A stretch of 62,278 bases of DNA, filler included, from Hausera hauseri (Eukaryota), in assembly GCA_046269625.1 (NCBI GenBank). It is 12 parts of 12 records of this genome, joined end to end, with 100 filler letters (N's around TTAATTAATTAA, not from the genome) between each part and the next. Parts side by side here need not be neighbours in the genome. Positions count along the whole stretch, not along the records: positions 50,820 to 54,893 come from JBJURY010779537.1; 11 more parts are not named here. One strand, written 5' to 3'. This document shows positions 18,634-58,047 of the stretch, piece after piece; the stretch's first letter is position 1; each line of letters opens with the position of its first letter. The notes under the pieces were generated by a model. The model saw only the letters and a list, made by a program, of their open reading frames with translations. It ran no database searches and was not told the origin of the DNA. Position numbers and translations under genes: made by a program.

Positions 18634-19032
18634 GCAATCATTACGCCGTCCTAGTATATAAATGCATGTTCAAGTCCAAACAACATTTTATTCATCATTC
18701 GAGTGAAAATAGCAAGTCCGCTTGTAATACCGAATGACATGACATTAAATTCGTATACCCTATCATGAGTTTTAAATGCCGTCTTGTAGCAGTTTTTACT
18801 TGCCAGTATCCGGATTGCAAGACTAAAGTGGTAACCCATTTTGCTCCTGAGAGTATATATAGAGCTTATTTCACGAATGGTAATGGAAAAGTGCCTTTCA
18901 TCATCATGGCACTCAGAGTTCTACAACTGATACAAAATCGATGTTTTGTCGAACCTTTCTTTTTAACAATGAGTACAGGTAAATACCAAGATCTATAGCT
19001 ATTATCGGCACACGGCCTGATGATACCGTATT
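18634..19032 (-). pseudogene. Ty3/Gypsy reverse transcriptase fragment
   Basis: GIIRP...SWYLPVLIVKKKGSTKHRFC and KTAFKTHDRVYEFNVMSFG...IY*D. Clear homolog of the RT at 51313-52152. Confidence 0.88.
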
Positions 19033-19059
19033 TAAATATAAGTCTTCTTTGTCGTTTGC

Positions 19060-19900
19060 GATTATGTTAGACAATATGCTGTTCAACATCCATTTTCCAT
19101 ATACTTTCTTCGTATGCCTTTAGGAATTTACCGAAAGGTGTTACAAATCGCAGTTAAAATTTTACACGAAAAACTTGTCAACATGAATATCTCATATCAA
19201 CATATGATTGTTAGAATTACTGCTATGATTAGTTGTACTAGAAAATAATTGGCCAAAAATCCAGAGGCGGCTTATCCAAAAATTAAAAATCTTCCCCAGA
19301 TTTTATATAAGATTTTTGTGGTTAAACTTTGATAGTTGTTAATGCCAAGTAACGGTTCCAATTTTGCTTGATAGCGAATATCCTCTAACACAGTATACAT
19401 AGCTCGATTCAGTTCGTGCGTATGCTGACGTGGAAAAGTAATGGATTGTCTAAATGCTTCAACTTCTTTTTGTTTATAAATACCTTTAGTTGTGGTATCT
19501 TGAAATTTGTTATCAGTTATTCCTTTTACCAAGTTAGTTCCCGTCAATTTACTGGGTTGTGTTGTTATGTCTCAGTTTGGTAAGTTTACCCAGTCAATCT
19601 GAACACTGGCTCTCCTAAACTGGCCTTGTATTCCTTTTAGATCATTGGTTGAGTTGAGTTTGCCAAAAAAATTCTAGTATATGCACTGCCAGTCTCGGCG
19701 TACTCTGGTATAAAACAGGAATTTGTAGTATATAACTCTTTTCTACTACATTAATTGGGACGTCTCTTTTCTGGCATTTGTAAGTCAACAAAACTTCACC
19801 AGTGACTCAACCGCGAATATCCCTCTTCGGAATTAGTGGCAACGCTAACTCAGTATTGGCATATATCAAGGCTATTTTAGTTCTCATGATGTCCATGTCG
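19060..19900 (-). pseudogene. Chuvirus/gB-like (class III) envelope glycoprotein, C-terminal part, copy 1
   Basis: DIMRTKIALIYAN...GEVLLTYKC, KGIYKQKEVEAFRQSITFPRQ and KIWGRFLIFG*AASGFL. Collinear with copy 2 at 53452-54893. Confidence 0.75.
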
Positions 19901-22744
19901 AATTCGTTTGATTCATTTCCTTGATTAGCGTCAAGTGATGTCACATTTTGCACTACGTCTTCGATTCTGGTATCATTATTGCTTGAAGATGGTCTCGACT
20001 GGTAATAATCTTCTTTCTCAAATAATTTAGGCCAATTTATTTCTTGAAGCAGTTTCTTACAAACTTTTCTGGCTAAGCTAATGGCTTTATTATGCTTGTT
20101 TTCTCGCCATGGGTTTATTTTAATCTCTAAGTATAGGAACACTTTTCTTAACTTTTCTGTGCTATTCTCTACCATAATTTTCTCGGTCACCACTTCCTCA
20201 GTCAAGGTGCATTTAGACAATTTTAAACATGAATGTTTCATTGTTCTAGCTGCATTATATGTAACTTTCTTTTACTGGTCTGTTCCATCGCAGAGGAGAC
20301 CGGATTAATTTGCGATACGTATTACGTTTTCCATAAGCTTAGTGAGTTCATCACTATCCCAATTGATGGTAGGTATCGACATTTGCCTTAACTTTCTGAT
20401 TAAATCTCCGTTAAAACGTCTCCTCGTACATTGCTTGGTCTTTTAACTGGACGTTTTTGCTTTGTTGTAAGTGGCACAACTTACCAGATTTTTATCATAC
20501 CATTCTTTATCTTCCTCAGTTTTGCAAGTATTCGAAATACATTGCAGCATTTTGAACTCCTATGATTTGTTCTACACATTTCTCGGCTTTGTCTTTATGT
20601 ATAGCTTCTTCTTACGTTTCTTCATCTGCGATTACGGTCACTATATGTTTTGTTTCACTGGGGATAATTTCAACATCTATTAACGTCCAATGTCCTGTGT
20701 CTGAAGTAGAGTCGATAGTTTACTTCACTTTTAGACCGTTGTTTATTAGCCGATGTTTTACATTTATAACAGGTGAATCTGTTGTGCACTCGCATTCCTT
20801 TTCATCCATCCATTCAGACAACACTTTTACTTTTAGTGTTACATCAGACTTAGCCTTTAAGATCTTAGCATATTTTTATTAATAGTTTTGGCACAGCAGT
20901 ATAAATTGTGTTTCCGTTAGATCATTTAGTTAAAGTAGGAACGAGTTGTTTTAATCTATTTCCGTGATGTTTACATTAATTAATTCAAGTAAATCATTCT
21001 CAGTTAGCACCGGATCTAGAAGCATTTATGCACTCGATCTTCAATTCTGTGGGTAGACTCTCGCTTATTAAACGTGTGGTGGAGTTTTACCCTTGTTTTC
21101 GTCGATTATTGCATCCAAATATTCATCCCATTCTGCATCTTTTTATTGAAGTATCTGGTTGTCAAATTAGATTCTCATTTTGTGAAATATATCGTATTTC
21201 ACGTAGTCACTTTTCAATCTTAGCTTCTATACTGTTTGGAACCCGATTCCATCATAGTAATATGTTGTAACACATTTAACAACTGGCATAGTTTATCTGC
21301 TTGAATAAATCCTTTTACTTGGTAAGTAACAAATTCTGAAACAATTCACGCTGCATCTTTGCGCAAATTCTGATTTATTGGATATTTCCGGCTCGATAAA
21401 AGTATACTTTTTCAGTATATTTCAAGTTCTTTACTCAATTCATGCATTTCAGTTTTTCTTTGTACAGTAGGAATTAAAGTTTTTTGCATGCAAGGTATCT
21501 GGTTTTGCAACTGTCTCATTTTTCGTCATTTATTTCGTCTATTTCTGCTAATATTGATGTTAACTTGTCCATTTCCTTCAAAATTCTGGAATCAGCGTCT
21601 ATTTCTTCAATTAAGTTCTTTTACAAAATTAGATTCTTCAAAGGTAATAAGATGGTTATTCATTATTTTCATTAATTTGCCGTGCCATATTTGATCCCAT
21701 CCTAGTATCTCATTAGATGAGTTGCGGAAAAATTTGAACACATTCAATATGGAGTTATTATCTAGGAACATATGCCCAATATTTTCAGCTCTTGTATTAT
21801 TATTTCCTTTATGGGTTTGTTGTCAGATACCGGATTCCTTCCAAACGGACATCTACAATTTTTGGATAAAGGCCATGAGTCATACTTTTTTCGACTGAAA
21901 ATTCGTTTTTCAATCATTCACTTGACAACGACACTTCTTCATTTTTGCTCATAAATTTCAGTCGCCGGAATTCATTCAAGCGTGCTAGGATATTAGCTTC
22001 TGCTCTCATAGCATAAATCAAATGGTTTTCCTCTCAGATGGGTAACCATAACATGCTTTATCATGTTCATCAATCTCTCCAAATTACGTTTTTCTCAGTT
22101 TTCGGTTTTAACCCACAACTCTAGGGTATTAGTTCCACTTTTATCTACACGTTTAATTCATATTTCCATTTTTCTAACAACTCTCTTGGTATTTCTTCAG
22201 GTTTATTAAAATTTAGTCCTTCGTCAAATATTCCTTCATTATGTAACATCAATTTCTTATACATTCTTTTCGCGAATTACTGTTTCTTCCTGGAAATATA
22301 TACTTGTTGGGCCATTCTTTAAGTTTTTCTGCATTATGTCGTATCTCTTCATTCATTGGAGTGTTTCTTATATCTCTGAGTTCATAGGCATTTTTCCATG
22401 AGTTTCTGATTTTCTACATATTTTTATCGAATTTTTTAGTTGGTGTCGTCTCATCCTCACTTCGAGAAAATAAGCATATGTAATTTATACCGCTTGGTTT
22501 CTCAACCATAATCGGCATATCTAGACTGGGTCCTATGTTATTTTCTACAATCTTTTCGGTCTCTTGGGTTTTCTCTGAATTTTCTTTAGTCAATAGGAAC
22601 TGTCCTTAGGTTCCCGTTTAATTGATGGGTTTCTACCTCTATTTTTCGCAATTTTAAGTATTACTCCTTTCCAGCTACATCGGCTTCAATAAACTTTTTC
22701 ACGTTTTCAACTATACATGATCCGACAAATAATTTTAAGACTGT

Positions 22745-32810: not shown

Positions 32811-32849
32811 CTGATAATCTGTTACTATCAAGTATTAAATAAGTGCTCA

Positions 32850-33921: not shown

Positions 33922-33989
33922 TACAACAATTAGAACGAAACGTAAATGAAAGATTCGGTAAACTGGGGCAAAATGATGAAAACCATGCA

Positions 33990-36900
33990 TTTATATCGCC
34001 GAATCACCATATACTTACCGTCACTGTTTATACTATGCTGCTTCTGTAGAACCAATGAGTCCATCCAGTAATGACGTGACAATCGGTAGAATTTCACCAA
34101 GGAATCCGCCGTCTTACTGGTACATTACCTCTCCTTTCAGTCGTTTACTACGGGCGTTTGCAAGGCCAATTAGTCCTTTTAGATACCTTAGTAAATTCCG
34201 CTTTTTACTTTCGCCTTGAAGCATCCGATTTTGATTGTGATCGCGCTGCTGTACAGAAAATGGTTCTGCAGGAAGTTGGACGTGTCCAGTAGTCCATCTG
34301 CCATCATTTGCCGGAGCAGCTAATATTGATTGATGTTTTTCGGCTCAAGGAAAAAGCTGTCTGTGTCATCGGCAACGACACTGATCTCATATCAGCCGCC
34401 GCCAAAGATTTGCCGGTAACGTGTCAAGTCGCGATATTGAAACTTGTACATTTGCATCTTGCTCAGGTTTAATACCACTTGTCCGATATAGCTTGGATGT
34501 CCAGTACGACTTCTTCTCTGTTTAGAAGCACGGCGACTAATCCATCGGCAATATGCCTTGATCGTCTGGACTGAGCCTTGCTGGTGTACGTAACCAGTCG
34601 TTTTGCGTTGTTGCACAGGCGTACATTAAGCCGCTTCTTCAGATTCTTCACTGTTTTCCCGTACAGTAAATTGTTTTTGAGCTTGTAATAGTTCTTTTCG
34701 AACTTTGTATAAGCTGCGGCTCGTTTCTCCGAATTTCCATCAATGTACGTCTTGAATATCGGCGCCTGATTGAAGCGGATTGCACGATGCAGCTGTGTGA
34801 CGGGTACACCGAGCTGCATGTAAAACTGCAGTAGACGCCAATGAACTACGTAATTCGATTTGGGTTCATGTGTCATGAGCAGTTTCTTTACTTTTGAGAA
34901 GGGGGAGACATTGGCTGATTGGTGACACGGGTAATTCGCCCAAAGCGTCATACAGCTGATCGGGTACCACGAGATCAACTTCCGTCAGGTAGCCGATTGA
35001 GCTGCTTCCTGTCGTGTTTGCTGCTGGCAGACTGTTTTTAGACAATCCATCCAAATGAACCGTACAGCAAGGGTTGCGAAAGTGCCCAGCCGTACAGGTT
35101 ACTAATGTCAATATACAGGTGGTGGTAGTATCATTACCACTGGCTACGTGATGTTTGTTGACAAACGTCATGTCGCCACGAATGCCAAGATCAAACAAGC
35201 GATATATTTCCGGGTCTTGCAGCAGCTCAATGTCCCGATCAAGTGACATTAGAGCGGATGCCCAACTCATCCCCGATATGGAGTAAAAATTAAGCGGCTC
35301 CAGCCTATCGTTCTCCAATGCTTTAACCCGAAACGCTTGGAATACGTCGGCTAACAAGTACACGTCCAGTTTCAGGTACTGGAGCATGTACTCAAACAGA
35401 TTGCGGCAGCCCAGCTCTGTCCAAAATCCCTCTGCTTTCTGGTACTCGTCCTCTGTAATTCCGGCCCATTGTGGTGTCAGTTGCTCTGTTGTCTGCAGTT
35501 GTCATACGATACAGCAAAGTCATATGGGAATATGCCTTTGCTGCGTGCAATATGCCCGGGTAACTGCGTCAGTGTCAGCGGCACATCTGGCAATGCATTT
35601 ACGAGCTTTGCTAGACACTCATTGAGGAACTGCAATGAGTCACGAAATCGTAACCGTAACCGATTTATGCGTGTTGATAGAGACAGGTACTTCTCCATCG
35701 TTGTTGGGATTATGGATAGCTCCCAATGCGGAAATCCGTTTATGGCTCATTTTAAAACATAGTGACAGTCATAACTCCTGAAGTTATGAAATATCACCGG
35801 CAGGAATGTCCGCATCTGTCTTGCCAAATTATATGAATTGCATGCTGCTCTCAAATATTGACCGGTAAAATGATCATGACCCGGTACGAGCCGTTCCAGT
35901 GCATTGAACGGTAATATTTTGTGGCACAGCTAACATTCATCTGTGGCTTCAAACATCAATGGTTCATATTTATATGTCCACATCAAGGGTTTATTGCTAT
36001 TCCTACTGTACCAGGATGCAACTTCCGATTCTACTATTGTTTCCAACTGCTTTAGGAAATCTCGTGCGCAATTTCAGCCATGAAAAACGTAATATTGCGG
36101 TTTGCCTTCAGCTTTTATTGGGATAACCAGCATGTCAACAGAAATTGGAATATGTTTTTGATCATATACGTTGTGCCGTGGTAGGATTGCCTCAATATCA
36201 GCATATACAACGTATGGCAAACTTTTAGTTTTCAACCAGTCACTAAACCTCAGTTCCTTTTTTACTGGCATGACATACATTTTGTCTGCACAACGTCACA
36301 TGCTTTTCCCATGTCGTTTGTGACCTGAAGCAATGCAGACACACAGGACACCGTTTGTATCGTATTTGGTTTTTGATAAATTAATCATGATCCATATTCA
36401 GCAATCTATCCAAATTTGTCACGGCCACGTAATGATACTTTTCCACCCGTTCCTACAGTAACACATTTACTGGGCATCCGTTTGAATTTCGATTTCTATA
36501 GATTATATTCACATGGGGATTCCTATAGAATTCTTCATCTACTGATATTTCAGCTATTGAATTGTACCGGAAAACGTTGATTTACAGCGTCGGATTAAGC
36601 CGTTCAAACGTATGAATAGATTTTAGTTTCATTGGCATCCAGTTTTCATCGAAATCCCATTCGGAAAAATATAGCCGATACTGATATGGACGCTTTGCAT
36701 GTTTTCTGTCCACTTTGTCATATTTTAATACGGCCAAAATACTGTAAAGAAAACAGTATTCATTGTTAATATTTTTTACATTCACTACCGCCACAGACTG
36801 ATTCAGAGCTGCAGGTGTCGGTATGAATGATCGCCCGGACAGGTAAATTATACCACTCGACTTTGTTATGATAAAGCCAAGAGTGACAATTTTTATAATT

Positions 36901-37490
36901 CGCCATCCACTACCCTTTTCAGTGTAGTTGGCGATTTTCTCCTCTAGCTTTTCGCCTACGTTGGCAATAAAATCTTCGGAATACGGTACGGCTCGATGTG
37001 ACAGGTACCATTGTTTTCTGTCACATTCCAAATCTTCAAATTCTGCAAGTTGGTTTTGGAATTTGGTCACCTCTGTTTCCAACCGGTTACGCACATCAGC
37101 GGGTACACCCTTTAATTGCGTTGCTGTTTTCACTGACATATCCACCTGCATATCAACGTACGATGTGTTTAGATCGTACTTGACTGTAATGTTTGGAATA
37201 CTGGCCTCCTGTTCTTGTTGATGCTGTTTCTGCTGCTGCGGCTGCTGCTGCTGTTGTGTACTGTTTCCTATTAAGTAGTCAAGACTGGTTTGAGGCCTGA
37301 CGTTTTCTACTGGTTGCTGTTGTTGTTGTTATTATTGTTGTTGTTGACAGAATGCTGCTGCCGCTATCCATAAATATTTGTTTCTTTGACTGCTTAAACT
37401 GGTTTAAGTGGTCCTTCTGCAGATTATAAAATTGTTCATAGTTGATTTAACCTTCAACTATTGAACAACAGGGGCAAACGTAGGCCCGTT
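33990..37490 (-). pseudogene. Protein-primed family B DNA polymerase (Polinton/adintovirus), many stops and frameshifts
   Basis: EKGSGWRI, YCFLYSILA, YVVYADIEA, HDHFTGQY...ACNSYNL, IFHNFRSYDCH, FRDSLQFL, KGIFPY, YLKLDVYLLADVF, YIDISNLYGWAL, KLKNNLLYGKT, VADDTDSFF. Confidence 0.93.
37215..37360 (-). repeat. CAG/CAA microsatellite (poly-Gln) in the pPolB N-terminal region
   Basis: TGC/TGT repeat runs on the plus strand translate as QQQQQPQQQKQHQQEQ in frame with the PolB N-terminal ORF. Confidence 0.7.
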
Positions 37491-37552
37491 TGTTGTGCAG
37501 CGTTGTGGTTATGCCATAGCACTGCTCCATTACACTATGAGAACCATCAACG

Positions 37553-37804
37553 TCATACACTTTTACTACAGTATCGCGGGTACATGGGGCAATGCACAAC
37601 CATCATCTTCTTAGACCGAGTAAACGGCCCGAGATGATGCTTGTGCATCTCATAAAAATTGGAGTACGGACAGCGGGTTGGCACATCACACGTTGGACAC
37701 ACATACCTGTCCGGACCAACTTTGTAGTATTTAGCCATCTCTTGATGGCACTGTTCCCTTTCGCATGTATGCGATAGACGTAATACATTCGATATTGAAT
37801 GCAT
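37553..37804 (-). CDS. Small Cys/His-rich (zinc-finger-like) Polinton accessory ORF
   Basis: 83 aa with C-x4-C, YVCPTC, HKHH and HCPMYPRYC; same strand as and just upstream of pPolB. Confidence 0.4.
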   Translation of the reverse strand: MHSISNVLRLSHTCEREQCHQEMAKYYKVGPDRYVCPTCDVPTRCPYSNFYEMHKHHLGPFTRSKKMMVVHCPMYPRYCSKSV

Positions 37805-39865
37805 TTCTAAATGAGAAACAAATTGAATTAAATGTTAAATGTCATACAAATATTATAAACGCATTTATAATTTAAATTAAAATTCACTTAAATCGCCGTA
37901 CCTTATACCGCTCCTTCTATGCTGGTGGTGGTTGTTGTGGTGGTGGTGGTAGTCTGAGGGCTTAACTTATTCAGCTACAAACATTTACAATTCTCAGAGT
38001 ATATTGAAAATGAAATTCAGAGATTGACGATGACATTTTGACCGGACATGTATTTGATGTACAGTTTTTATGTGAGCTCACAAAAAGGAGAATAATGAGA
38101 AGGCAAAATTATATTGAATTGATAGTCAGATCTCTGTTCGTAAAACGTATTGAGGATGAAATGAGACAAAAACGACAACGACAACGATGTATTAATTTCC
38201 TCATTGGACTTGTATTTTCCGTTTCATTNNNNNNNNNNNNNNNNNNNNNNNNNNNNNNNNNNNNNNNNNNNNTTAATTAATTAANNNNNNNNNNNNNNNN
38301 NNNNNNNNNNNNNNNNNNNNNNNNNNNNTGGTGAAACGTTTTTCATATTGTTAATCAGCATTATACTTTGTACGTTTTTTACACCTTATAAAAATCCATG
38401 TGTAACAGTTTCAAACTCACATGAATTTTTATAAGAAGTTGCCAAAAACGTTTTACCAACAAAATTCAAAAGAACGCAGTGATGGCTCAAAAATAAATAA
38501 TAAGAACATACTTTTTAGGATAGCAAAACACAATGGTTTACGTACAAAATGTTAAATAAATGTTGATAAAACTTCATTTTGTTCAAAGAGCTGGAAGAGA
38601 ATGTCAAAGTAACTATGGTAATCAAAACTGGAAATATTTTGGTTTACATAATTACACATCTCCAATAAAGTATTCGTACTAAATAGATAAAACATGAAAC
38701 ACATCGTTAAACAAAAGTAATGAAGGTGAAAACAATAAATTTATTTATTAATTAAAATATTTTGAAATGCATAAATCTTCGGAAAGCAAAGTAGGAATTC
38801 TAGTTTATTGATTGTTACGTGCAATTGAAACAATGCTTATGCATAGTGAGTCTATTCGGTGTTTTAATGAAAGACGAGTTTTCTACATTCCCGCCACAAG
38901 ATGAACACAAAAGATCTCGATACTCATCCAGAATTAATTTGTTTTTGAATAATGGTTGGAGTATCCGAACACTGACGCCATTTACGAATTTTCTCCACTC
39001 CCCGTTTCATCGTAATAGTAAAGCACGTTTGGCGACGAACTGAAATGGAATTGGCCAAGAAAGCATACAATCTAGTTAGTGGCCAACTATCTGGAAGCAG
39101 AATAAGTACCTAAAGCAAAAATTGAGCAATAATAAATAAAAAACAACGTTGCCAACACTACAAGATATTTCAATGTATGAGTAGTATAGAAACGTCGGTT
39201 CTGGATCACATCCCTGCCCCCCACTGTTCACAAAAAGAATGTGGATATAAAAAGTTAACAAGTGGCTTTGATCAATTTCCGTTCCTTTTTTCAACCAATA
39301 TTTTACAAATGTTAGATTTATAGGATATCGTTCATTTGATACAAAAGTACAATGTATTCGTCTAATTGCAATTGATATCGCTGATATTTCTTCGTTATTG
39401 TTACATTTTTGGGTTTTACACACGAACTGTTAAAGATTACCGGTAGAAATTAGACGAATATTTATTTGTTAGTCAGAAGACAAGTCAAATATAAATGGTC
39501 GAAAAAAGTCGACTATTTGTACCAATTTCAAAATTATTATTGGACAGGGGAATTGAAGAAGTGCGAAATGACAACATTTGACAGCACTCATTGAGATATT
39601 TCATATTTTATAGCAAAATTATTGTCATACTATTAATAAATATAAAATTTTGTACTTGCATAATTAATTTTCAACCAAAAACCTGACCAAAATTAAAACA
39701 AATTCCAAAGTTCGTGATAACTTGAATTAACTCAATGGTATTCGGGAGTAACTATAAGACACATACGAACTGTAAATTTGGGTATTTTATAACAAATAGT
39801 CACAGACGTACAAAAAATATGATGCTGATTAGTTAGAAAAAATTTCTGCCAACCAAGTCAAAATA

Positions 39866-41081: not shown

Positions 41082-41949
41082 CAGTTTTAACCCTGTACCA
41101 TTGAACTAAAATATAAAATGGTTTGCATAAATATGCGTGTAATATATGACCTTTATATGTTTATTAGTTTATTAAACAAAATATTATATTTTGTGTATAT
41201 TTTTTGTTTCATATGGGAGAAGTACTTAATTTAGAAGTACCGATAATTAGATAGAAAGGAGCACATAAGATGAGACCTCCTCCAGGGACGAAGAAAAGAA
41301 GTGGCTCGCGGATGAGTCATGGGGTAGAAAAACCGATACACATAGGCACGATTAATATGGTGGAGATAGGAGACACAGTTGTGAAAGTGACACACACAAG
41401 CACATGTACTGCATAAATTCGAAGTAGTTTAAAAAATTTGAATTTGGTGCGAAAAAAATTTTTTTTTCTTTAAATTTTGGTGGTCGGGTATAAATATAGG
41501 TGTGCCAATAGCGTGGCGTTGTTTCAACAAATAGTACTAAAAATGGTATGTTCTTAATTCTGCTCTCCTAAATTATGTATATACTTAGAATTACAAAATA
41601 GATTTAGAAGCTGAAATTAAACGGCTCATAAATGAAATATGCAGTGGGAGAATTGATTGTGTCCAATTTCTAAATTAATTGGAGCAACAATACTTTCTAT
41701 CAAAGAAAGACTATGTAAAAATTGTTCTATCGACAAACATTAAAGAGGAATTTAGAGAAAGACAGAGAAATGTTTTATTTGTGTGCAGTATCCTTACTGG
41801 TGCATTTGTAATACTTTTATCTATATTTGTTCTATAATAAATGTCAATCTTTGTATGTTATAAATGTTCACAATACTAAAACAGTATTTACTCTGATTAA
41901 AATCCTTATTAACAAACACATTAAAGAATGAAATATTTATTGACATAAA

Positions 41950-43596
41950 ATATAACCACGCATTTGTACAATAATGTCCATATGACACACTTTTGTTTTT
42001 GTCAATCAACTGTCGTTTGTTGTCGAAAGGATCCAATGCTTTCTTTTTTGAGTTTATTATCATAAGCTGATGGTTTTTAGTCTCCATTCGCTCCTGGTCA
42101 ACCATGGTCTCACAATCGGTTTTATAAGCCTGTAGGTAGCTGTCGAACTGCAAGTCTGTCTGCTTGCGATTGATCCCTTTGCATTTGAGGATTGGTTGCT
42201 TCGAGTTATGAAAGCATAGGATTTGGGCCGTAGGAAAATGGTCTCTTGATACTGAACGCTGCCCTTACTCTCGTCTTTAAATTTGCCTATGACAGCTGCG
42301 AAACGAGTTGAGTAGATGGATCACTTTTTTCATAGTTCCAAGTGTTCAATTGCTCGTTTGCTATCATTTCCGGTAAAAGTTGTGGTCTCAAATCAACACT
42401 ACACCATTCGATGAAAAAACTGTCTGTGTTAGCGGCAACGATATTAATTTTACAATTAAACTGTTGCCTATATGTCTCCAACTCGATATAATTCAGTTCA
42501 TACATGCGCAACTTGGACAGATCAAGTACGGCCTGCCCGATTTACAAGGGCCTATCTAATCTAACCATAACTTTATCGAGGAACATGACAACCAGGTCAT
42601 CAGCCATTATAATGCTCTCTTTAAACTTTGCCTTGCTGGTATATGTAATAAGCTTCTTAGAATTATTACATAGTCTCAAGTTGTACCTTTTCAGAAGATT
42701 CTCAACAGTCTTGCCATATAAGCTGCTGTTTTAAGCTTAAAAAATCCTTTTCAAAAGCATTAATCGCTACAGCTCTTATAGAAGTAGTTATAACGATATA
42801 ATCCTTAATTACATAACCTTGGTTAAACTCAACAGATCGATAAACCTTTTCAACTACGGCGCCTAACTCGAGATATAACTGTAAGAGCCTATAATGAATA
42901 ACATAATTAGACTCATGTGTCAGCAACAATTTCGTTACTTTGGAACTATGAGGACATTGGTGTATTGGAACTATAGGCAGTTAATCCAATTTATCACGCT
43001 TGTCAGCCGGAATACTTAAAACAACCTCAAAAACTATGCATTGTTTTTCCTTAACAATGTCAACATAAGGCAATTGTTCAATAAGACTATTTAATTTTTC
43101 CACATCATAAATCCAAGTCAAATTCGCAAATGGAAAAGGTTGATAAAGCCCAGCCGTACAAATTATTTACATCTATATACAAGAGACTAGTGCTCTCATC
43201 AGTTATAATCCTATGCTTATTTACAAAAGTCATACCACCGCAAATACCAGATTGTAAGAACTGATACATTTCAGGATCCTGAATGAGCTCAATCTTACAT
43301 TGACTGGATTTCAGCGCTGTTCCCAACTTAATCCTGGAATGGAGACAAAGCTAGTAACCTCTAAACCATTTTGCAACTTAACCTCTTTTCTAAATCTCTC
43401 AAAAACATCACTTAACAAGTATACATCCAGTTTTATGTATACTAACATATAATCTAAAAAACAGTTACAACTATATCTCAACCAAGCCAATTGTGCTTCA
43501 CGATAATCGCTATCACTGACCCCATCCCATTTCGGTGGCAACTCCTTAATAGACTGAAAATCACTGAAAGATTTGTCTGCAGTATATGGAAAATAT
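41950..43596 (-). pseudogene. Second Polinton-type pPolB fragment (C-terminal half)
   Basis: IFPY, YIKLDVYLLSDVFERFR, GICGGMTFVNKH, LYIDVNNLYGWAL, NSLYGKTVENL, AANTDSFF, ALDPFDNKR...YGHY. Confidence 0.92.
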
Positions 43597-43644
43597 CAGA
43601 AGGAAAAGCCGATTCAGTAAATGGATAGCTGTTAAAATTGGAAG

Positions 43645-44298
43645 CTAAATGTGATGCAGCGTTGTCTTATCCAGTGAAGAATTGATATCGGTATTCTGCT
43701 TAAAGACATCTGCATCCAATCCGGGAAAATCGGCAATAGAATTAGACTGAGAGTTATTAAACGTTATCTGTCCGATTGAATCATCCTGATGGCTTGTACC
43801 TTGATATGGTATAGTCGAAATGATCTGAGACTTAAGCGAATCGTCAGAATACGAAGTAGATAACCGAGATTCCAAAAGATTAGTTTGATTTGAATTAACT
43901 ACAAATGCACTGTGAGTGCTTTTGTTGGGCAGGACTAAATTGAGATCGGTGATTTCCACAATCGGTAAAGTTGACAGTTTATCACGAACATTGTTGGAAA
44001 TTGATCTTAGATAAGGTTGAGGATCTTTTCCAATTAATTCTGGTACGAATGACATGTAACTTGTTGGAAGATTCAGAATACCAAAAAACCTCTTTTCTTG
44101 AGGTGTCAAGGACACATTATTTGTCGCTTTATTATTAGCTTGAGAATAATTTATGTTACCACAAGGCTTATACTGACTGGACCTTCCAGTTTTGCAATAG
44201 TAAATTCGTTTAAAAAAAGTTAGTGTCATCATCGTCATCAAATTCCAACAAAAATGAATGCACATCGAAATGACCAATTTTCCACGTTTCACTTTCAA
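43645..44298 (-). CDS. Hypothetical Ser/Asn-rich protein (exon fragment)
   Basis: 217-codon open frame; no recognised domain. Confidence 0.3.
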   Translation of the reverse strand: MKVKRGKLVISMCIHFCWNLMTMMTLTFFKRIYYCKTGRSSQYKPCGNINYSQANNKATNNVSLTPQEKRFFGILNLPTSYMSFVPELIGKDPQPYLRSISNNVRDKLSTLPIVEITDLNLVLPNKSTHSAFVVNSNQTNLLESRLSTSYSDDSLKSQIISTIPYQGTSHQDDSIGQITFNNSQSNSIADFPGLDADVFKQNTDINSSLDKTTLHHI

Positions 44299-46829: not shown

Positions 46830-48720
46830 CAAATCGTTCCGAATATTTCTGCTGCAATTGGCAATTGCTGGAGCTTTCTATCCAAATTATTTCCTCCGAA
46901 CACATTACGTTTTTTGAAGAAAACGCTCAACGTCTCTTCGGCGGTCTCGATCGATTCCAATATGTGGAAGTGGGGAACCTACCCATGGACGAGGGTTATT
47001 TGTATCGGGACCGCATCGCATCTCATTTTAAAGAGAATCCAATCGTTGTCTGTCGTAATACTAAAGACATTATAAAGTTCCCTGACAATTTTTCCAATCC
47101 ATACAGTAACATGTTTCACTCCCAAAGCAACCGGACTGCCAATATCTAGGTCATTTTGGCCTCACGTGTGGGTCAACTGAGCAGTTGGAAACCAAAAATT
47201 TCGTTGTACGGGTTAACACACGAGAAGAATGAACTCAAACAACTAATCGATGCACAAATCATCCGAGAAAACAAATTGTTACCACTGAATTATAAATATC
47301 TTGCCGGACCGAAGAATCACGTCGGTTATCCATCAGTGGAATGTAACTACGTGAGGGTGTTCGTCACCCATACAAAGGAGTGCGGAATATTCTATGGTAT
47401 ATATAAGGACGATAAGGGGAAAGAACATGACTTATTTTCGGAGATCGCCAACTATGTATCGTCAAGAAAGAAACAAAAACTCAATTCATTGAAAATCGGT
47501 GACTGTTGTCTAGCACCGTTTGATAGTGAATTCTATCGCGCAGAAATCATTGGGAAAAAGGCTGATTTGATGACGGTGTACTTTGTCGACTACGGAAATA
47601 CGTACAGTGTACGATCTGTATATACGTATGAACTTCCGGAACGGATACTGAAGATTTGCCCCTTAGCCGTGAAATTTGCACTCAGTGAAATCAAACCAAG
47701 TGCTGCATGTCACAAAGACGACCCATGGACTAGTACGGATCGGGATGTTTTTCAAATATATAAACGCATACATAAATATACCACTTTGATGCAAAGTCTA
47801 TTTGGTTGTAGATAATGTCGTCCGAGTAAGAGTGTGCATGGTCGATCATAACAACCGAATACTCAATGAAGAACTCCTAATCATGGGAACTGCCGAGTAT
47901 GCTGAAGAAGGTTTTAGCAGTCAACAGGATAATATGCAGCGGGTCAAGTGTAGCAATAAACGACAAATAGATTCATTTTCCGGCGAAACAGTAATGTCGA
48001 AACCGAGATTCGTAAAAAACCTGGGACTGAACGATAGCGAATCGGACATTGACATTGATGATTTGGACGATGACATTGTCACGACAAATAAGTTGAATAC
48101 ACTGATGGAGTCAGTTAAACATAAACGATCTATTTAAACCGTTACGTTGAGCGCACCTCACCATCCATTCTTGATGAAATTCCACGGTGTAACGGAGTCT
48201 AGCAAACGACCTTTTAGCACTGCTCCCGATTCTGTCTGTTCTATTTTGATCGAACCAGAACGACAAATTCACTTGACTCGTTTGTTAGTAGCCGGTTGTG
48301 TCCAGTCGTGTACTGCCGGTGAAGAGGATAACGACTTAATGTTACGAAATTGTACTCTAATGCCATACATTCCCGGACTTCCGCTTATCATGGTCTTCAT
48401 TCTTACTCCATCCGCAAAAAACTTGTCACTGATTATCATCGCACCAGATACACCGGAGCCCGATTTGAACTCGGTGTTGACTCTGAGGGTTGACCTTTGC
48501 ATCCGTCCAACGTCATATATCCGTACTGACGTAAGATTTGACGACAGCGACAAAAGCATTAATGGCATTCGTGATCTACTGAACATGACACTCGGCAGCA
48601 CAACTTATTCTCAAGACGTCATGGAGAATTATCAGTCGGGCAAAGAAATTATTAGCCTCTGTTCTTGAAGCACAATCGAGATCTCGTCAACAATGAAATA
48701 GTCGGTGAGTACAGTCAGAG
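46830..48720 (+). pseudogene. spn-E: spindle-E/TDRD9 C-terminal half (Tudor and C-terminal region), disrupted
   Basis: LAIAGAFYPNYF, RLFGGLD...GYLY, Tudor IGDCCLAPFDSEFYRAEI...VYFVDYGN, VYLVVDNVVRV, DSVCSILIEP...RLLVAG, LRNCTLMPYIPGLPLIMVFILTP. In-frame stops at 47147 and 48135 plus at least 2 frameshifts; no evident introns. Confidence 0.87.
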
Positions 48721-48799
48721 TATGGCGTTCGCCGACATGGACCATTGCACAATTACATATAAAACGGATTTCAACAGAATTTTTATACCGCACATTTCC

Positions 48800-49235
48800 A
48801 TTGATGGTGTCCCAAGGAGTATCCGATGGATTCGTTCGCCGATTTTAGGCGATCCTCGCACAGAGCGAGCAAAAGCCGACTGGATCCGACGATTCCAGGA
48901 GGCAATCGATGATAATTTAAAAGATCTGAACGAGCCGATTCTAAGCAGGTTCCATCGAACTATGACTTCTCGAATGGCACGACCTGAAGAATTACCAGTC
49001 GTTGAAAATAAACAGAAACGAAGAAAGGACAACAAAACCATTGTGGCTAGCACGGTCATCAAACAAATCCAGGTGAATAAAATAAATACTACTTTCATAT
49101 TTGTTGCTGATAAAACCGTAATGCATATGTTTGCTAAATTTGGTTATGACCAGTGGAACATTGATTTAAAGCTCAGTCCGACTATGGTTGCCGGTTTCGA
49201 TACATTCCACACCAAGATTGGTAAGAAATCGGTTA
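48800..49235 (+). pseudogene. piwi: Piwi-subfamily Argonaute fragment (MID/PIWI junction with first catalytic Asp)
   Basis: FVADKTVMHMFAKFGYDQWNIDLKLSPTMVAGFDTFHTKIGKKSV aligns with the Piwi consensus SVATKIAIQMNCKLGGxxWxVxIPLxxxMIVGxDVYH...KSV. Ends abruptly at a GC-rich block. Confidence 0.7.
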
Positions 49236-49963
49236 CCCCGAAATTTGCGACCCGCCACGGTGATGCTGAAGCCCCGGCCGCCCACCCTATACTATTGGGT
49301 CAGACAGCACCCCTCGTTGCCGCCCCACGACACGCCCTCGGCCACACCACCTCTCCTTATTTCCTATTCATTTTCTTAAATAACAAACACATTTGCACAA
49401 ATTCAGCAACACATTTAAACACGGTGGCAATCTATAACTTCATCTCCACTATTCTTTGCATAAATGTCAACGCAAAAATGTCAAAATCATCATAGTCATT
49501 ATCATTGTAAATGCGTTCGTTTTTGTAAAAATCGTGAATTTTATTTTGTACAACGACGACGACGACGAACACACAAATTACCAGGAGCCCATAATTGACT
49601 ACTACTACTAACACGGAGAATGGTCGCGATCAAAAGTCACATTAATGGAAATATCATATTATTTCTCATGATTTGTTCGCTCTTTAGTCTAAAGTTCAAT
49701 CACGAAATATTGGACATTTGAAGTCAAGACTGTTGTTGTTGTTGTTTGGAAGCGCACTGTTTTCAAAATCAGCAATGTACTTCAATAAATTATGACCACT
49801 GACATAAAATATCATGGGACTTAGTTTATAGTCATTTTGAACATTTTGACAACCGAATATGGATCAATCGGTGAAAGTTCGTTTCTTTTACTTTTTCTTT
49901 ATATTACTATTTTATTAATTTTAAGATTTTATTAATTTTTATTTTTATTATTAATTTTTTTAA

Positions 49964-50819: not shown

Positions 50820-52935
50820 GCGCGCTGGCGGTCTATTATTTCCTCAAGTCAACTTTTCTTCATTACAGTGATTGCGCTTGTTTTAGTCTTTAATCTTGAT
50901 AGGGCATCTGCGTCTACATGTTTGTTCCCTGGCTTATACTAAAATTCAGTATTGTATCTTGACATTTCCTCGATCCATCTATTGAGTCTGCTTGTCGGGT
51001 TATTTGCTCGGCCTTTTAAGGTCGTAACGGCCTTGTGATCAGTGACAATTATAATTTCCTGCCAGTATACGTAAACGTTGAAATGTCGAAGTGCTTCTTT
51101 TACAGCTAGCGTTTCCAATTCGGTAACGGAAAAATTTTTCTAGGCCTTCTTTAAGGAACGTCCTCTATAAGCAATCTGATGTTCTAACTCTTCATCTTCT
51201 CTTTTCTGCACTAATTTGTATCCAATGCCTTCTTTACTGACGTCTGTCTTGATTATGAAGGGTAAGTTAAAGTTTGGATACCGTAAAACAGCTTCACTTG
51301 TTAATATCTTCTTCATCTAGTCGAAGGCTTTCTGTTCGATATCTGTACATTTCCGTTTAATTCCTTTTTAAGTAGGCGGTATAGAAGTGCATGAATTTTT
51401 GAATTATCTGGTACATAGGTTGCGTAATATCCGCAGAGTCCTAGCCAGTGCCTCAACTCTTTCTGGTTTTGTGGTTCAATGCAATCTGATATTTTGTTTA
51501 ATAACGATTTATCTTGTTTCAATCCTCCTTCTCCAACTATATGGGTAAGGTAGGATACTGAGTTTTGAGCCCATTTGCATTTCTTTCGATTTAGCTTCAA
51601 TTCAGCTTGTTCTAATCTCATCAATGTGTGTTCAATATCCTTTAAGTGTTCCTCTTCAGTTCTTGATGCTATCATTAGGTCATCTAAGCACGCAAAAGCA
51701 TGATCCAATCCCATTAACATTTTGTTCATCATTCTCTTAAATATGGTTGGCCCGGTAGTAGTACCGAATGACATGACGTTAAACTTATAAACACCATCGC
51801 GTGTTTTGAATGCTGTCTTATAACGGTCTTAGTCCTCAATTACCACTTGCCAATATCCGGATTGTAAATCCAGGGTGGTAAACCATTTTGCTCGTGAGAG
51901 CCTGTCTAAGGCCTCTTTTCCTGACGGTAATGGAAAGGAGTCCTTCATCGTAAGATTATTTAAGGCTCTGTAATCAACACAAAATCTATGTTTTGTGGTA
52001 CCTTTCGTCTTAACCATGAGGATTGGTGAATACCAAGATCTATAACTGGGCCTAATTATATCGGCCTTGAGCATTCGTTCGACTTCTTTTGTTATCTCGG
52101 GCCTTAATGAATGTGGCGGAGGATACCATTTTGGCATCTTCTGGTCTTCCAAATCTATTTCCTTGTTCGATTCCGGCTTTTTTTGAGTGGAATAGTCAGT
52201 TTTAACGCTCTCGCTCTACCAATATCTTCGTCCTTAGCAATAATCGATTTATATCGGCATAATCGTTCATAGAATTGACAATAAGACTAAGGTGAAAACT
52301 TAGTCTGTGCATTATTAGCTATTCTGATAGGCACTCGACAGGAGTATACTCTTGTTAATATACTGCTGAGTAATATATTCGGATCCAGCGTATCCTTTGG
52401 TTAAAAATATACCGGTTAATCGTCATCTTTCTGTATCTAGGGCGCAAATTATCATTTCTGTTCTCGGTGGGATGTCTTCATCTACGGGTATCCATGCCTC
52501 TCCAATTTTTCTTTCTTTGGCGTTTTTATGCCTTTCTTCGGCTTGATTTTTATTAACTTCCATGCTTGTAAGTCAATTGCTATATTTGGTAATCTTTTCA
52601 ATAGATCACATCCTAGAACTACGTCGTCGGTTAATTGCTCCATAACTGAAAATTCATGATGGAAAAACTGTCCAACTATTTGAACTTTGGGTTCCATTTA
52701 AACATTGGTTTTGACATTTAGCCAAATTCCCCTGTACTTTCTGAATCTTTCGTATATAGTGGGTATAATTGTCCTCTCAGTGTTTGAGTTATTGAATCAT
52801 TTTTGATGTAAGACATCTCGGATCCTGTATCGATTAAGGCGTAAACTTCCCAATCTTCAATAATGATTTTGGCGAAGGGTCTTCCTTCTATTACTGTTCC
52901 GAAACAGTTCGATGTACCCTTTGAGCGTTTCACTG
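50820..52935 (-). pseudogene. pol: Ty3/Gypsy pol: aspartic protease, RT, RNase H (integrase beyond contig end)
   Basis: PR RPFAKIIIEDWEVYALIDTGSEMSYI and VVLGCDLL. RT HRFCVDYRALN, DSFPLP, FTTLDLQSGYWQV, KTAFKT, ACLDD. RH YPNFNLPFIIKTDVS, ELETLAV, TDHKA, HVDADALSR. Confidence 0.93.
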
Positions 52936-53451
52936 CCGATATTTTATGTCCATTGATTAGGATTTCGGGGGAGGATACTATATTCTCCTACAACTGTCTT
53001 CATTTTTCGTTTGGATATAACATGTTGTTTTCTATGTGCAATTCTGCCGTTTCGTGTGTACTAACTAATGGTTTTCGATTGTTAGTGTGTAGTTCAGTAT
53101 TCTGGAAGGTTTTAGCCCTTGGATTGTCCCAAACCGTTTATCTGATTTCTATATTTCGAGGTTCTCTCGGAGAATACAACATCTTGGAATCATCTGTGGA
53201 TTGTCGGTAACACATTTTCCGTGGGATTCCATAAGGTTTTGTTCCTTCATAAGGGTCTTCTACGTTAAATTTGTTTTTTTATAGATTTCAGTCTGATATG
53301 AACTCATTGATAATTTGTCACAGTCTTTATAGACCGGAGCGGTAGGGGGTAGCATATGCAATGGTGCTTTAATGACAGAGTACGTCTAATGTCTGTTTAT
53401 TCCTGATAATACTTCTCTTCCCTTAGGTTCGTCATCATCTGAATTATTTCT

Positions 53452-54893
53452 TTACGTATTAGACTTTGTAAATTTCCGCTTCCGCAAGAATATAGACCTT
53501 CCTGTTCGTTTACGATTATAATAACCGACATGACGCTCTACGTCAGATTTCCATCTGTTTTCTTTGTATGTCTTTAAGAATTTTACAAAGGGCGTTATGA
53601 TCGTCGTCAATATTTTACAGAAAAATCCAGTCAATGTAAATATTTCGTACCCATTTATTACTGCTTGGATGACTGCTTTAATCATTTGTATCAGGAAGTA
53701 TATGGCTAAAAATCCGGATGCGGCTTGTCCGAAAATTAAAAATCTTCTCCAAATTTTGTAGAGTATATCTGTGGTTACTCGCTGATAATGATTTACGCCA
53801 AGTAAAGATTCCAATTTAGCCTGATATCGTGTATCATCTACTACAGAAGCCATGGCTCGGTTTAATTCGTGTGTTCATTGTCGCGGAAAAGCGAGGAATT
53901 TTCTAAAGACTTCGATTTCCTTGGGCCTGTATATGCCTTTCGACGAGATGTCTTGAAATATATCGTCCATAATTCCTTTCGCAAGGTTTGTTCCTGTTAA
54001 TTTAGTTGGGCAGCAGTGATACCTCCATTTGGCAAACTAACTCAGTCTGTTTCACTGCATCTAAACATTGGTTCTCCTAAACTTGCCTTACAATTTTTAA
54101 GGATTGTTGTTTGGGTCGCGTTATCTAGTAATACTCTCGTCAGTGGTATAGCTAACCTAGGAGTATTCTGATAGATAACAGGGAGTTCTTGGATGCAACG
54201 TTTTTCTTCCACGTTCATGGGTACATCTCTCTTTTCGCATTCATAAGTTAACAGTATTTTGCCCATAACCCGACCGAAAATTCCCTCTCTCATAGGAATT
54301 ATTGGAGAAGCCCGTTCTGGGTTGGCGTATATAAGGGCCAACTTCATCCTCATGATCTCGGTATCCAATTTGCAGTCGCTAGTTATTATTTTGTGATATA
54401 ATTCAGCTATTCCGACGTACCCTTTGTAGTAGAAATAATCGTCTCTGTTTTTCAGATAATCCTCAATTCGGATATCCTGCGTTTCTAGTTTGTAAGTCTT
54501 TGCATTTATTTCTGCTTCTGCGACGAAAAACGCCTCATAGTTAGTAGCAAACATCACTACTTCACAACGAGAAATCATTTCTTTCTTAATAAATTTTAGT
54601 CTATGCTTATCAGAGATTAATATAGTGGGCGTAGGATGTTATGATACGTCTTCGCGTGTCCTTGAGTTGGTATCAGATTTATCCGCATATCGCTTTCCGG
54701 TAGTTTCATGAAACTTTAATTACTTAATTTTGATAAAATTACAGCTTCTTCCAGAGGGAGGTTCCCATATTATAACAGAACTTCTAAAAGCACAGGTTCC
54801 ATCTTGAAAATGACATTTTTGATTCTCGGTATATAGTTTAGTGACACTATGGAACATTACTTTCTGTGCTCGCATCTCTGATTCATAGAAATC
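53452..54893 (-). pseudogene. Chuvirus/gB-like (class III) envelope glycoprotein, copy 2; N-terminus cut by contig end
   Basis: Cys pattern CHFQDGTC...IIWEPP...CNF, CEVVMFATN, GRVMGKILLTYEC, CIQELPVIY, PLTRVL, GIYRPKEIEVFRKFLAFPRQ. Membrane-proximal IWRRFLIFGQAASGFLAIYFLIQMIKAVIQAVINGYEI matches the recalled chuvirus G pattern W.KF..FG..SAG......IK..I...I.GY. Confidence 0.78.
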
Positions 54894-57138
54894 NNNNNNN
54901 NNNNNNNNNNNNNNNNNNNNNNNNNNNNNNNNNNNNNTTAATTAATTAANNNNNNNNNNNNNNNNNNNNNNNNNNNNNNNNNNNNNNNNNNNNACTTATA
55001 TTCCACCCCGTATTTTTACCATATCATATTTATCATTTACATTTTGGTAATAAATCGTTTTCATTCGCGATATCGTAAAGTACAAGAATATTCTGGGTAT
55101 GTTCCTAGAGTATGCTTTATTAGATGAAATTCTTCGTCTGACATTCGAAATCTCCTTCAACATTAAAAGTTTTCCAAAGGCGTTACAAAAAATTATCATC
55201 AATAAAATATTATTTCCTTTCGCAGAATTGTCCTACTTCAAAAACGTTGAATGATATCGATGGAAAGTAATGGGAAAAAATAAAACGGCTAATAGAAAAA
55301 AGCGAGATTATTGCGAAAAATATTATCAAGCATTCATAGAATTACACCAAAATGACAAGAACTACATTCAGCACCGCACAATGTCCCGTTCGACGACAAT
55401 TTTCTATAGATTTTCTCCCATTTTAGATGAATAAAAGTGCAAACTTCGTTCGTACAAAAATGAATCGGCTCAAAATAAATTCAATTCCTGTAAAAATTAG
55501 TGAGTGTTATATCTCAAAATTTGGCGAATGATCAAAATATTCAATATTGATCGATCTGAAATATCTCAAATTAAAATAAACAAACATAGAAATTGATCCT
55601 CGCCAAATGTTGATTTACTGAAATTAAAATAAATAACAGTGAAAAAACAACTACCTTGGCAAATGATCTTGACAATTCTGAATTGCTATAATTGATTTGG
55701 TGATATTATGTGACAATTTTGAATGGCTATGTACATAATTTTTATTGACTAAGTAATGCTATGTATACTGTAAATTTAATATATAAGCCAGCACATTTTA
55801 CGGTAAAATCGAACATTCGAACACTAAAATATCATGACATTGGTATTGTTTTTAAATTTACATGTGAGTACTTATTGATACACATTATGTGTATTTTGTT
55901 TCATCGAATATTTGGCGTTTAAATGTTTTTACATTATAACTTTTGTATATAATCGTATTTGTGTTCTTTTTGGCCTTAAAAATTAACTGAGTAAATAAAC
56001 AAGCGTATTCATTAAAAATAGTCGAAAAGATCCCTACCTGACGATGGCTCAAATAATACAAATAGTTTAATAGGATAGTAAAGCATAGAAATTAAAGACA
56101 AAGTAAATCACATTGACCACGACACATGATCAGCTTCCTAAATAGGTAAGGTTCTTAACATATCTCTCTCGCTCTCGTTCTTATTTTATCTCTATTAGCA
56201 TGACTCACTGTGTTTTATAAAACTAAATGTTTGTTAATTGTAGTAACAGGACGTTAGCCAATCAAGAAGGAAAGTGGATTTCAATTTCCGAAGTTTATAA
56301 GAAGAATAGCTAAACAAGTTGAGGCATCCCTGCGAACTGTACTAAAAGTAAGATCAGTTCGTCCGAAAGGCCCAATCAACAAACGTCTGGAGAAAAGTGT
56401 TATACAATTTATTCAAAGTCATCCTACAGCATCCATACGGGACAGCAAAAAAGAAACAGGTATCTTAAAGAAAGAAATAATTTCAAAACGTATAAAAAAC
56501 AAAAGTATCAAAAAAGAACTCAGGAGCAGAGCCAGACTGCAGCTAACATAATTCATTTGATAGTCTTTATTACGCTTCCAAATTCATTTTATCTGACAGT
56601 AAATTTGTTTCATTTTTCATTTGTGGGGATAATTCAATTTCATTTTTGTTGACAATTTTACACCGCAAAGACAAGTCTATATAAACATAGGATTTTTAAG
56701 GACACCGACCATTATTTTTTTGTTATAAAACTCTATGCTACGTCCTATCGATAAGTAAGTATATAGTATAAATAAAGTTTGAACCAAAGTAATTTTCCTA
56801 ACCAGGACCCTTTTTGTTATCCCGGTCAGTAAAAACCGGGTGTTTAAAATCCTATAAATAAAGTACTATTCGGCCAGAGTCCCTCCTGCGTCCAAGTACA
56901 CCATAAGATCAAGTAATTTCTACCAACTAACAGGTTGCCACACGTAAAACTAAAATAAACTAGGCGTATGATCCAAAGGAATCACGTTTAAGTTTGAGGT
57001 CGGGACACCCAAACTTCATCTCTAATCTCAAACTCAACAAGAAAAATAAGCCAATATTGTTCGAGAAAAATCAAATATAAATAAAATACTAAGTCTCTTA
57101 CAATAATTTTGAAACAAATTCTAGATCATTTTGAAATT

Positions 57139-58047
57139 ATGAAAAAAATAAAATTAGGTTTGATTTCTGATGTTCAATACTGTGACTGTGATGATGGCTG
57201 GAATTTTGAACAGACTGTCGAACGATTCTACCGAAACAGTGCCCAACATTTAGCCAATGGCTTACGCTATTTTGCGGAGAATAATTGTCGATATGCTTTA
57301 CACGCAGGTGATTTGTTGGACAGAAAATGTACAGCATTTAATAATGTAAGATGCGCAACATCCCACATGGAGAATTTGTTTAATCAGTGCGATATTGAAA
57401 CATTTCATGTTGTAGGAAACCACGAACTATATAATTTCAGCCGACAAGAGTACAGTTCGTCATTTATGGGTCAATCTGCTCGACAATACAATCCATCGGT
57501 GATTGAGCGCAGTTACTATGCTGTGGATTTGTCAAATTATGTGCGGTTACTGGTGTTAGATACGTATGATATCAGTGTCCTTAATGGTGATAATGATCAG
57601 CAACATGAGGCTGGACAATTTATTTCATCATCCTGCAACACAGATGGGAAACATTTCAGGGATTTCAATGGTGGAATTGGAGTTACTCAACTGAAATGGT
57701 TGTGTAATGAATTAGAATTATGCAATGAACAGAACAAGGTGGTCATTATATCAGGACATGTACCCATATTGAGTATGGATGAGGATTGCATCAGCCTGTT
57801 GTGGAATAAGGATGTTATATTGGATATTATTGAACATTACTCATGTGTAAAGGTCTACATTTGTGGTCATACCCATGTTGGTGAGATAATCAATAATGGT
57901 AAGTTCATTCATTTAACATTGCCTGGTGTTGTTGAATCACCAAAAGACGCAACGCCATATTGCATATTGACAGTCGACAGAAATGAATTGGAAATTAGTG
58001 AGATATCAAATTGCTGGGATAAAATTGTGTTTCGATTTTCGATTTAA
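57139..58047 (+). CDS. ADPRM: Mn2+-dependent ADP-ribose/CDP-alcohol diphosphatase
   Basis: Intact intronless ORF with GLISDVQYCDCDDG, R.YRNS, GDLLD, GNHELYNF, LDTYDIS, FNGGIG..QL.W, HVP, LLWN, GHTH and LPGVVE. Confidence 0.9.
   Translation: MKKIKLGLISDVQYCDCDDGWNFEQTVERFYRNSAQHLANGLRYFAENNCRYALHAGDLLDRKCTAFNNVRCATSHMENLFNQCDIETFHVVGNHELYNFSRQEYSSSFMGQSARQYNPSVIERSYYAVDLSNYVRLLVLDTYDISVLNGDNDQQHEAGQFISSSCNTDGKHFRDFNGGIGVTQLKWLCNELELCNEQNKVVIISGHVPILSMDEDCISLLWNKDVILDIIEHYSCVKVYICGHTHVGEIINNGKFIHLTLPGVVESPKDATPYCILTVDRNELEISEISNCWDKIVFRFSI

Follow-up and report, generated by a model that had tools for sequence, protein, structure and literature searches.

In a stretch of 62,278 nt from the genome assembly of Hausera hauseri (GCA_046269625.1), called the window in the following and composed of 12 small contigs with N44-linker-N44 spacers between them, one entire contig of 4,074 bp (positions 50820-54893, JBJURY010779537.1) very probably comes from the interior of a Ty3/Gypsy-type retroelement that is multicopy in the genome and of which this copy is decayed. 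In this element an envelope gene (env) of the herpesvirus glycoprotein B (gB)/chuvirus type lies before the protease (PR), reverse transcriptase (RT) and RNase H (RH), and its intact relatives are single-frame Gag-Env-Pol polyproteins that are likely cut to mature proteins.

Gene order in the contig

Linkage was assessed inside the two ends of this contig. Six-frame translation and Pfam matches place a class III glycoprotein, a retropepsin, an RT and an RNase H in this order on its minus strand, as the first-pass annotation of the sequence had reported. The C-terminal two thirds of the gB/chuvirus-type Env ectodomain (54010..54893; PF24664, E 1.3e-18; three stops), which are cut on the 5' side by the contig end, are followed in a different frame by the Env stem, a membrane-proximal WxxF motif and a transmembrane (TM) segment at about 53727-53650 (together 53550..54009; PF24664, E 9e-20, and hydropathy; one stop). 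The glycoprotein that had been annotated at 54893-53452 is hence present, but not as one frame, there being a frameshift near 54010 and five stops counted to 53454. Beyond the so-called linker (53024..53549) and an MLYP motif in the protease frame (53012..53023), both discussed below, lie the retropepsin (52560..52880), with ALIDTGS at 52840-52820 and a frameshift near 52720, the Ty3/Gypsy-type RT (51361..52125; RVT_1, E 1.7e-30; one stop), the catalytic motif of which reads CLDD (51690-51679), and the RNase H (50891..51346, Pfam span 51274-50954; RT_RNaseH, E 8.5e-28), which is frameshifted with respect to the RT and has two internal stops. The protease is matched by the Pfam RVP model alone at E 0.03 only, and by a home-made protease profile at iE 3e-5 and 5e-7 over two frames. 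About 70 nt remain between the RNase H and the contig end. At the two contig ends Env loses its N-terminal quarter, approximately 175 positions of the profile, and the integrase (IN) is cut off.

The spacing of the domains agrees with that of the relatives described below, both from the Env WxxF to the protease Asp (about 307 aa as compared to 129-389 aa) and from the protease Asp to the RT DD (381 as compared to 403-412). All 112 RT matches carry RVT_1, and those with a name are Ty3/gypsy-type or unspecific. A gypsy-type RT is found here in the order PR-RT-RH, with env ahead of pol within 2 kb on the shared strand and no long terminal repeat (LTR) in between. Because stops and frameshifts occur in every gene, the copy in the window would be inactive. 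It lacks the intact open reading frames (ORFs) that are asked for in the available parts of a recent survey of errantiviruses (Chary & Hayashi, eLife 2026; PMC13524379), and it is a relic of a GAG-ENV-POL element and not an intact member.

Class of the glycoprotein

The Pfam family matched in two frames of the window Env, PF24664, is a Monjiviricetes-type fusion glycoprotein. When a profile built from 84 Env relatives was searched against the PDB, herpesvirus gB accounted for 39 of the 40 sequences found, with a best E of about 1e-4. An AlphaFold2 model of the ectodomain piece from the window, with X at the stops, reached a pLDDT of 81 and contains a central helix of 48 residues; in Foldseek comparisons with the PDB nearly all rows were gB but weak (best E 0.013, none at or below 0.001), and against BFVD the same model retrieved chu-like and related glycoproteins with E 2e-9. 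For an intact relative (P0006) the model matched gB with E 4e-14. In agreement with the earlier annotation, the glycoprotein in the window is therefore, by profile and model, a class III (gB/chuvirus-type) fusogen.

Gene order in the relatives

A full HMMER (phmmer) scan with the Env piece yielded 200 matches, of which the best 150 were examined. PR and/or RT follow Env within one protein in 11 of these, all ranking within the top 21, while one has an RT-like piece ahead of Env and 138 have neither. Because the 11 are found among the 150 best Env relatives, the order env before pol is a trait of the lineage, as had been proposed, and not the outcome of a nested insertion. A word-based search with the same piece gave no match among 741 candidates, where the full HMMER scan did match; likewise, no relative was found in a viral contig collection, and none matching the polyprotein P0007 in a genome contig collection.

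Pfam searches of 18 of the longer matches revealed the order Env-PR-RT-RH-IN in P0004, P0007, P0016 and P0024, and a Gag zinc knuckle or Gag domain ahead of Env in P0012, P0018 and P0024, the last of these combining a Gag zinc knuckle, Env, PR, RT, RH and IN within 2,146 aa. At the DNA level two loci were confirmed out of 115 pattern matches. One of them, L002, has a single stop-free frame of 3,703 codons comprising a capsid-like Gag, two zinc knuckles, Env, two PR, RT, RNase H, IN and a C-terminal membrane protein; in the other, L001, the frame is open at its 5' end, and its 3,426 codons cover Env, three proteases and Pol. The window fragments are collinear with the single L002 frame, onto which they map in order. 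By translation, Gag, Env and Pol are thus shown to share a single frame in intact relatives, which agrees with the single polyprotein that had been suggested for the window element, although in the window copy itself the Env and PR frames differ.

Among the Env-first polyproteins (P0154, P0012, P0004, P0005, L001 and L002) the number of retropepsin-like domains ranges from one to seven, some of them located after the integrase, and one protease is detectable in the window copy. By eye, the stretch 52990-52880 (minus strand) looks like the beginning of one protease domain and, after it, the lead-in to another, a hint of a deleted extra protease. No paper on gypsy elements with several or duplicated proteases came up in one literature search. 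Host-like cargo was also seen: a weak Bcl-2 match ahead of Env in P0006 (residues 9-70, E 1e-3), a weak ubiquitin-like match in the L002 ORF (residues 848-903, E 0.018), and, in P0154 (residues 1322-1345 and 1895-1963), matches of the C2H2 finger and ankyrin types. The polyproteins of both L001 and L002 close, beyond the integrase, with another membrane protein, and both loci have a downstream RNase T/DEDD exonuclease ORF (10617-12107 and 12085-13473, respectively); for LTR elements of rotifers, the accessible text of PMC5408684 describes a DEDD exonuclease as cargo. P0007 (HBK71150.1) is an animal retroelement polyprotein that stands, under the label hypothetical protein, in the records of a Flavobacteriaceae metagenome-assembled genome, likely by contamination.

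Copies of the element

The element family is multicopy, as shown by the 13,908 contigs of run X1 that match the stretch, mostly at 90-95% identity, and cover all 30 bins including the linker; summed depth in this run was not used as a copy number. One X1 contig joins Env to RT via a skip of 2,770 nt. In run X2, from another organism, 28 of the 30 bins are covered, and one 302-nt contig extends from the Tyr-Pro motif through the protease.

A second related copy is found on another contig of the window (18634..19905, minus strand), where Env (19905-19035; PF24664, E 5e-15) and RT (19000-18634) align with the first copy by blastn at 68% over 887 nt and at 70% over 380 nt, respectively. Here an internal deletion, in which about 1.44 kb with linker and protease are missing, joins the C-terminal half of Env directly to the middle of the RT, and the similarity with the first copy at the nucleotide level ends at 19905. 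This copy, to which the first-pass annotation had appealed for the same gene order, is a deleted mosaic that does support the order but not the junction, and with linker and protease missing and unrelated sequence upstream of 19905 it is weaker evidence than had been assumed. In the 3.4 kb upstream of its Env no Pfam family scored above the cut-off in three frames and no match to the gag of the relatives was found; about 3 kb of this region (19905-23000, minus strand) look like decayed coding sequence without a Pfam match, and a mariner-like fragment lies near 22750-23300. A decayed gag with a capsid-like part and a zinc knuckle lies at 17142-17970 (minus strand); it resembles the L002 Gag (E 3e-14), with the similar gag placed at 17811-17142, and is followed by coding sequence that is interrupted by a DDE transposon. 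This unlinked gag may come from the 5' region of a related element of the env-first kind.

The linker and a conserved Tyr-Pro motif

The sequence between Env and PR had been described as a decayed linker of about 500 nt with no gag motif, LTR or primer-binding site (PBS). None of these was found: no frame between Env and PR contains a zinc knuckle, the contig has no repeat above 25 nt and, by a simple pattern search, there is no PBS-like site between Env and PR. Of the seven purine tracts in the entire contig, one of 13 nt lies between Env and PR, which is not an excess. However, because relatives align into it in the Env frame as far as about 53270 (tblastn of P0154 and P0010, to 53266-53311), the linker is itself decayed coding sequence of the Env tail or a spacer, and a non-coding linker was rejected on the same alignment.

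At the end of the linker, the MLYP motif lies 62 codons ahead of the protease Asp, the distance also found in L001. Tyr-Pro occurs 29-56 aa ahead of the first protease Asp in nine of the first 11 relatives, as compared to 1.06 expected from shuffles, in a search window set after these relatives had been viewed; in L001 and L002, which were fetched later, it lies 62 and 50 aa ahead, so that the motif is common to 11 of 13 relatives in total. Bonds between an aromatic residue and Pro are cleavage sites of retropepsins, and on the simplest reading Tyr-Pro would be a candidate cleavage site on the N-terminal side of the protease. On the other hand, YPXnL is a late-domain consensus that recruits ALIX/ESCRT, and the motif might instead serve, on the Env tail, as a late domain of this type for budding. 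Judged by motif, this is rather unlikely: YPxL or YPx3(L/I) is indeed present in P0007, P0012, P0014, P0018, P0005 and P0011, but the downstream Leu at those spacings is missing in the window copy, P0004, P0154 and others, and the constant distance to the protease Asp suits an N-terminal processing site.

A model for the polyprotein and alternative explanations

In the model favoured here, the polyprotein would be made at the endoplasmic reticulum, where an internal signal sequence after Gag would thread Env into the lumen. Because a signal-peptide-like hydrophobic stretch lies just ahead of Env in all 11 relatives examined, signal peptidase may free the N-terminus of Env in the lumen, while the TM helix would act as a stop-transfer sequence, leaving the tail and PR-RT-RH-IN in the cytosol and tethered to Env. 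The retropepsin would then cut near the conserved Tyr-Pro site and release Pol from the Env tail, so that enzymes and fusogen could be loaded into the same budding enveloped particle with no spliced env mRNA. The earlier proposal that the retropepsin releases the fusogen would accordingly fit on the C-terminal side only, the N-terminal side pointing to signal peptidase.

Several observations weigh against an env-first polyprotein element as the source of the contig. Env and PR are in different frames in the window copy, and neither gag, LTR nor integrase is linked on the contig, which is an internal fragment; none of the matched contigs covers the whole stretch or connects TM with PR. No LTR pair is found in L001 or in 15.5 of the 16.6 kb of L002, and the nearest relatives are distant, with Env at 27-36% (about 30%) and RT at 40-46% identity. 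A second, mildly hydrophobic stretch after the TM segment, seen by hydropathy, would permit another topology, and the Tyr-Pro statistic, besides its search window, draws on sequences that are kin. As to phylogeny, the window RT falls beside env-first elements without support in RT trees, of which the first was built with a quick method only (115 rows, four dropped as shorter than 200 aa) and the second from 10 env-first rows and 23 hand-picked from 112 others; a single env-first clade is neither shown nor rejected (p-AU 0.052), and the RT of a nematode (P0359, Panagrolaimus) is in the same weakly supported group. The independent evolution that had been claimed for the element is thereby not shown.

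One alternative would keep the order gag-env-pol but have Env and Pol as separate ORFs, or Pol reached by programmed frameshifting or readthrough as at ordinary gag-pol junctions. This would suit the different frames of the Env tail and the MLYP/PR stretch and the stops in the linker, as well as the wording of PMC13524379, which in its available text describes ORFs "arranged as" GAG-ENV-POL and allows gaps of up to 2 kb between them. However, frameshifts occur in the window copy within Env, within PR and from RT to RNase H as well, so that its frames say little, and every near relative of sufficient length has a single frame, which makes this alternative improbable.

Still less probable is a chance juxtaposition, by tandem or nested insertion or chimeric assembly, of the env of an upstream gag-pol-env element or of a chuvirus-derived insertion with the pol of a different element. 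In its favour, the assembly is in many fragments and rich in repeats, the second copy is itself a mosaic, and no single matched contig leads from TM to PR. Yet the roughly 700 nt in question leave neither room for nor sign of an LTR plus gag, and the LTR between glycoprotein and protease that would have betrayed tandem or nested elements was looked for and is absent; the nearest relatives of Env are env-first polyproteins and not viral G proteins, and the RTs of the same env-first elements, nine in number, rank 1, 3, 4, 6, 7, 8, 11, 14 and 15 of 121 in similarity to the window RT. Moreover, the linker retains the Tyr-Pro motif of the family at the L001 distance, and the order recurs in the second window copy and in an X1 contig. 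A tandem or nested origin was rejected on the lack of room for LTR and gag, the env-first relatives and the retained motif, and can be regarded as largely refuted.

Relation to described elements

The env-before-pol order is real but already published, so that the novelty suspected in the first-pass annotation does not hold. According to the available parts of PMC13524379, errantiviruses of Nematoda, Bryozoa and Platyhelminthes carry only ENV of the HSV/gB kind (HSV, herpes simplex virus), arranged GAG-ENV-POL; these do not form one monophyletic group, and two mites have ENV-GAG-POL. The table in that paper lists hosts of this kind, with LTRs and with copy numbers as high as 215, and, as far as available, has no row for Enoplea or Nematomorpha; its main text, to the same extent, contains neither "polyprotein" nor "fused". 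Like these "ancient errantiviruses", the window element has a Ty3/gypsy Pol, a chuvirus-related, gB-like class III Env and env before pol, and is multicopy in an invertebrate; unlike them, the window copy is decayed and partial, and the comparison is with their published description and not by placement in their tree. A gag before env is seen in the relatives L002, P0024 and P0012, the window contig ending before that region.

The same paper credits Sacco et al. 2022 (J Gen Virol) with the flipped ENV/POL order in nematodes, which the window element shares in so far as that account goes. A literature search on gag-env-pro-pol and related terms found no paper. These nematode endogenous retroviruses reportedly have a continuous gag-env-pro-pol ORF with an RNA-virus-like glycoprotein, and are said to be restricted to chromadorean nematodes and to carry small ORFs or an Upf1-like helicase as cargo. 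A continuous ORF of this kind is also found in the relatives described here, the window copy being too decayed to read, and the relatives differ from the cargo so reported by their repeated proteases, C-terminal TM protein and DEDD exonuclease ORF.

BEL/Pao elements of mosquitoes that have captured a chuvirus glycoprotein (Dezordi et al. 2020, PMC7642597, in the portion available; also cited in PMC13524379) share the class of glycoprotein with the window element but have a BEL/Pao and not a Ty3/gypsy Pol. A BEL/Pao identity of the window element was rejected on its RVT_1 and RT_RNaseH matches and since no match among the 112 RT matches is named BEL/Pao. In the mosquito elements env is said to follow pol. 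Cer1 was rejected as a comparable system, its extra ORF being located after pol and not coding for Env in the accessible part of PMC10309623.

Nearest to the window element for both Env and RT are the metagenomic polyproteins P0004, P0007, P0154 and P0024 and the loci L001 and L002, which are collinear with it and have the Tyr-Pro motif in common; unlike the window copy, each is an intact single frame, with lengths of 2,100-4,800 aa and in many cases two to seven retropepsin domains. It is conceivable, if doubtful, that the window element belongs to an undescribed clade of giant single-frame Gag-Env-Pol elements, reaching 4,800 aa, in a host group other than the three recorded phyla, with a retropepsin amplified up to seven times and a conserved Tyr-Pro site freeing Pol from the cytoplasmic tail of a class III fusogen. 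In that case a reverse-transcribing virus would use a polyprotein strategy that is flavivirus-like and threaded through the membrane. What is added here is another env-first gypsy family at high copy number in an invertebrate, direct DNA evidence from relatives for Gag, class III fusogen and Pol in one frame, repeated protease domains in these relatives, and a conserved Tyr-Pro by which the processing of such polyproteins becomes testable, all of which bears on how retroelements came to be enveloped with no spliced env mRNA.

Host genes and other elements in the window

Of the host genes in the window, EDEM2 (28839-31365, minus strand, five exon blocks) bears on the position of the host. It has no close relative, the best match being 84% on one conserved exon, and in a tree of 33 rows, including one nematode and with flatworm and bryozoan rows dropped as too short, it forms a long unresolved branch outside the sampled pancrustaceans, euchelicerates and a mollusc/annelid group; a host outside Nematoda, Bryozoa and Platyhelminthes is possible. 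Further host genes code for a PGRP-like amidase with a C-terminal hydrophobic stretch (8569-9558, minus strand), a Tudor-domain protein (47150-49495, plus strand) and an apparently intronless ADP-ribose/CDP-alcohol diphosphatase (ADPRM; 57085-58047, plus strand). An unrelated decayed gypsy element with PR-RT-RH-IN, in which no env was seen, occupies 24700-27700 (minus strand), and remnants of a Polinton/Maverick-like DNA polymerase and accessory genes were recognised by eye in translations of 31822-38228 and 41800-43650.

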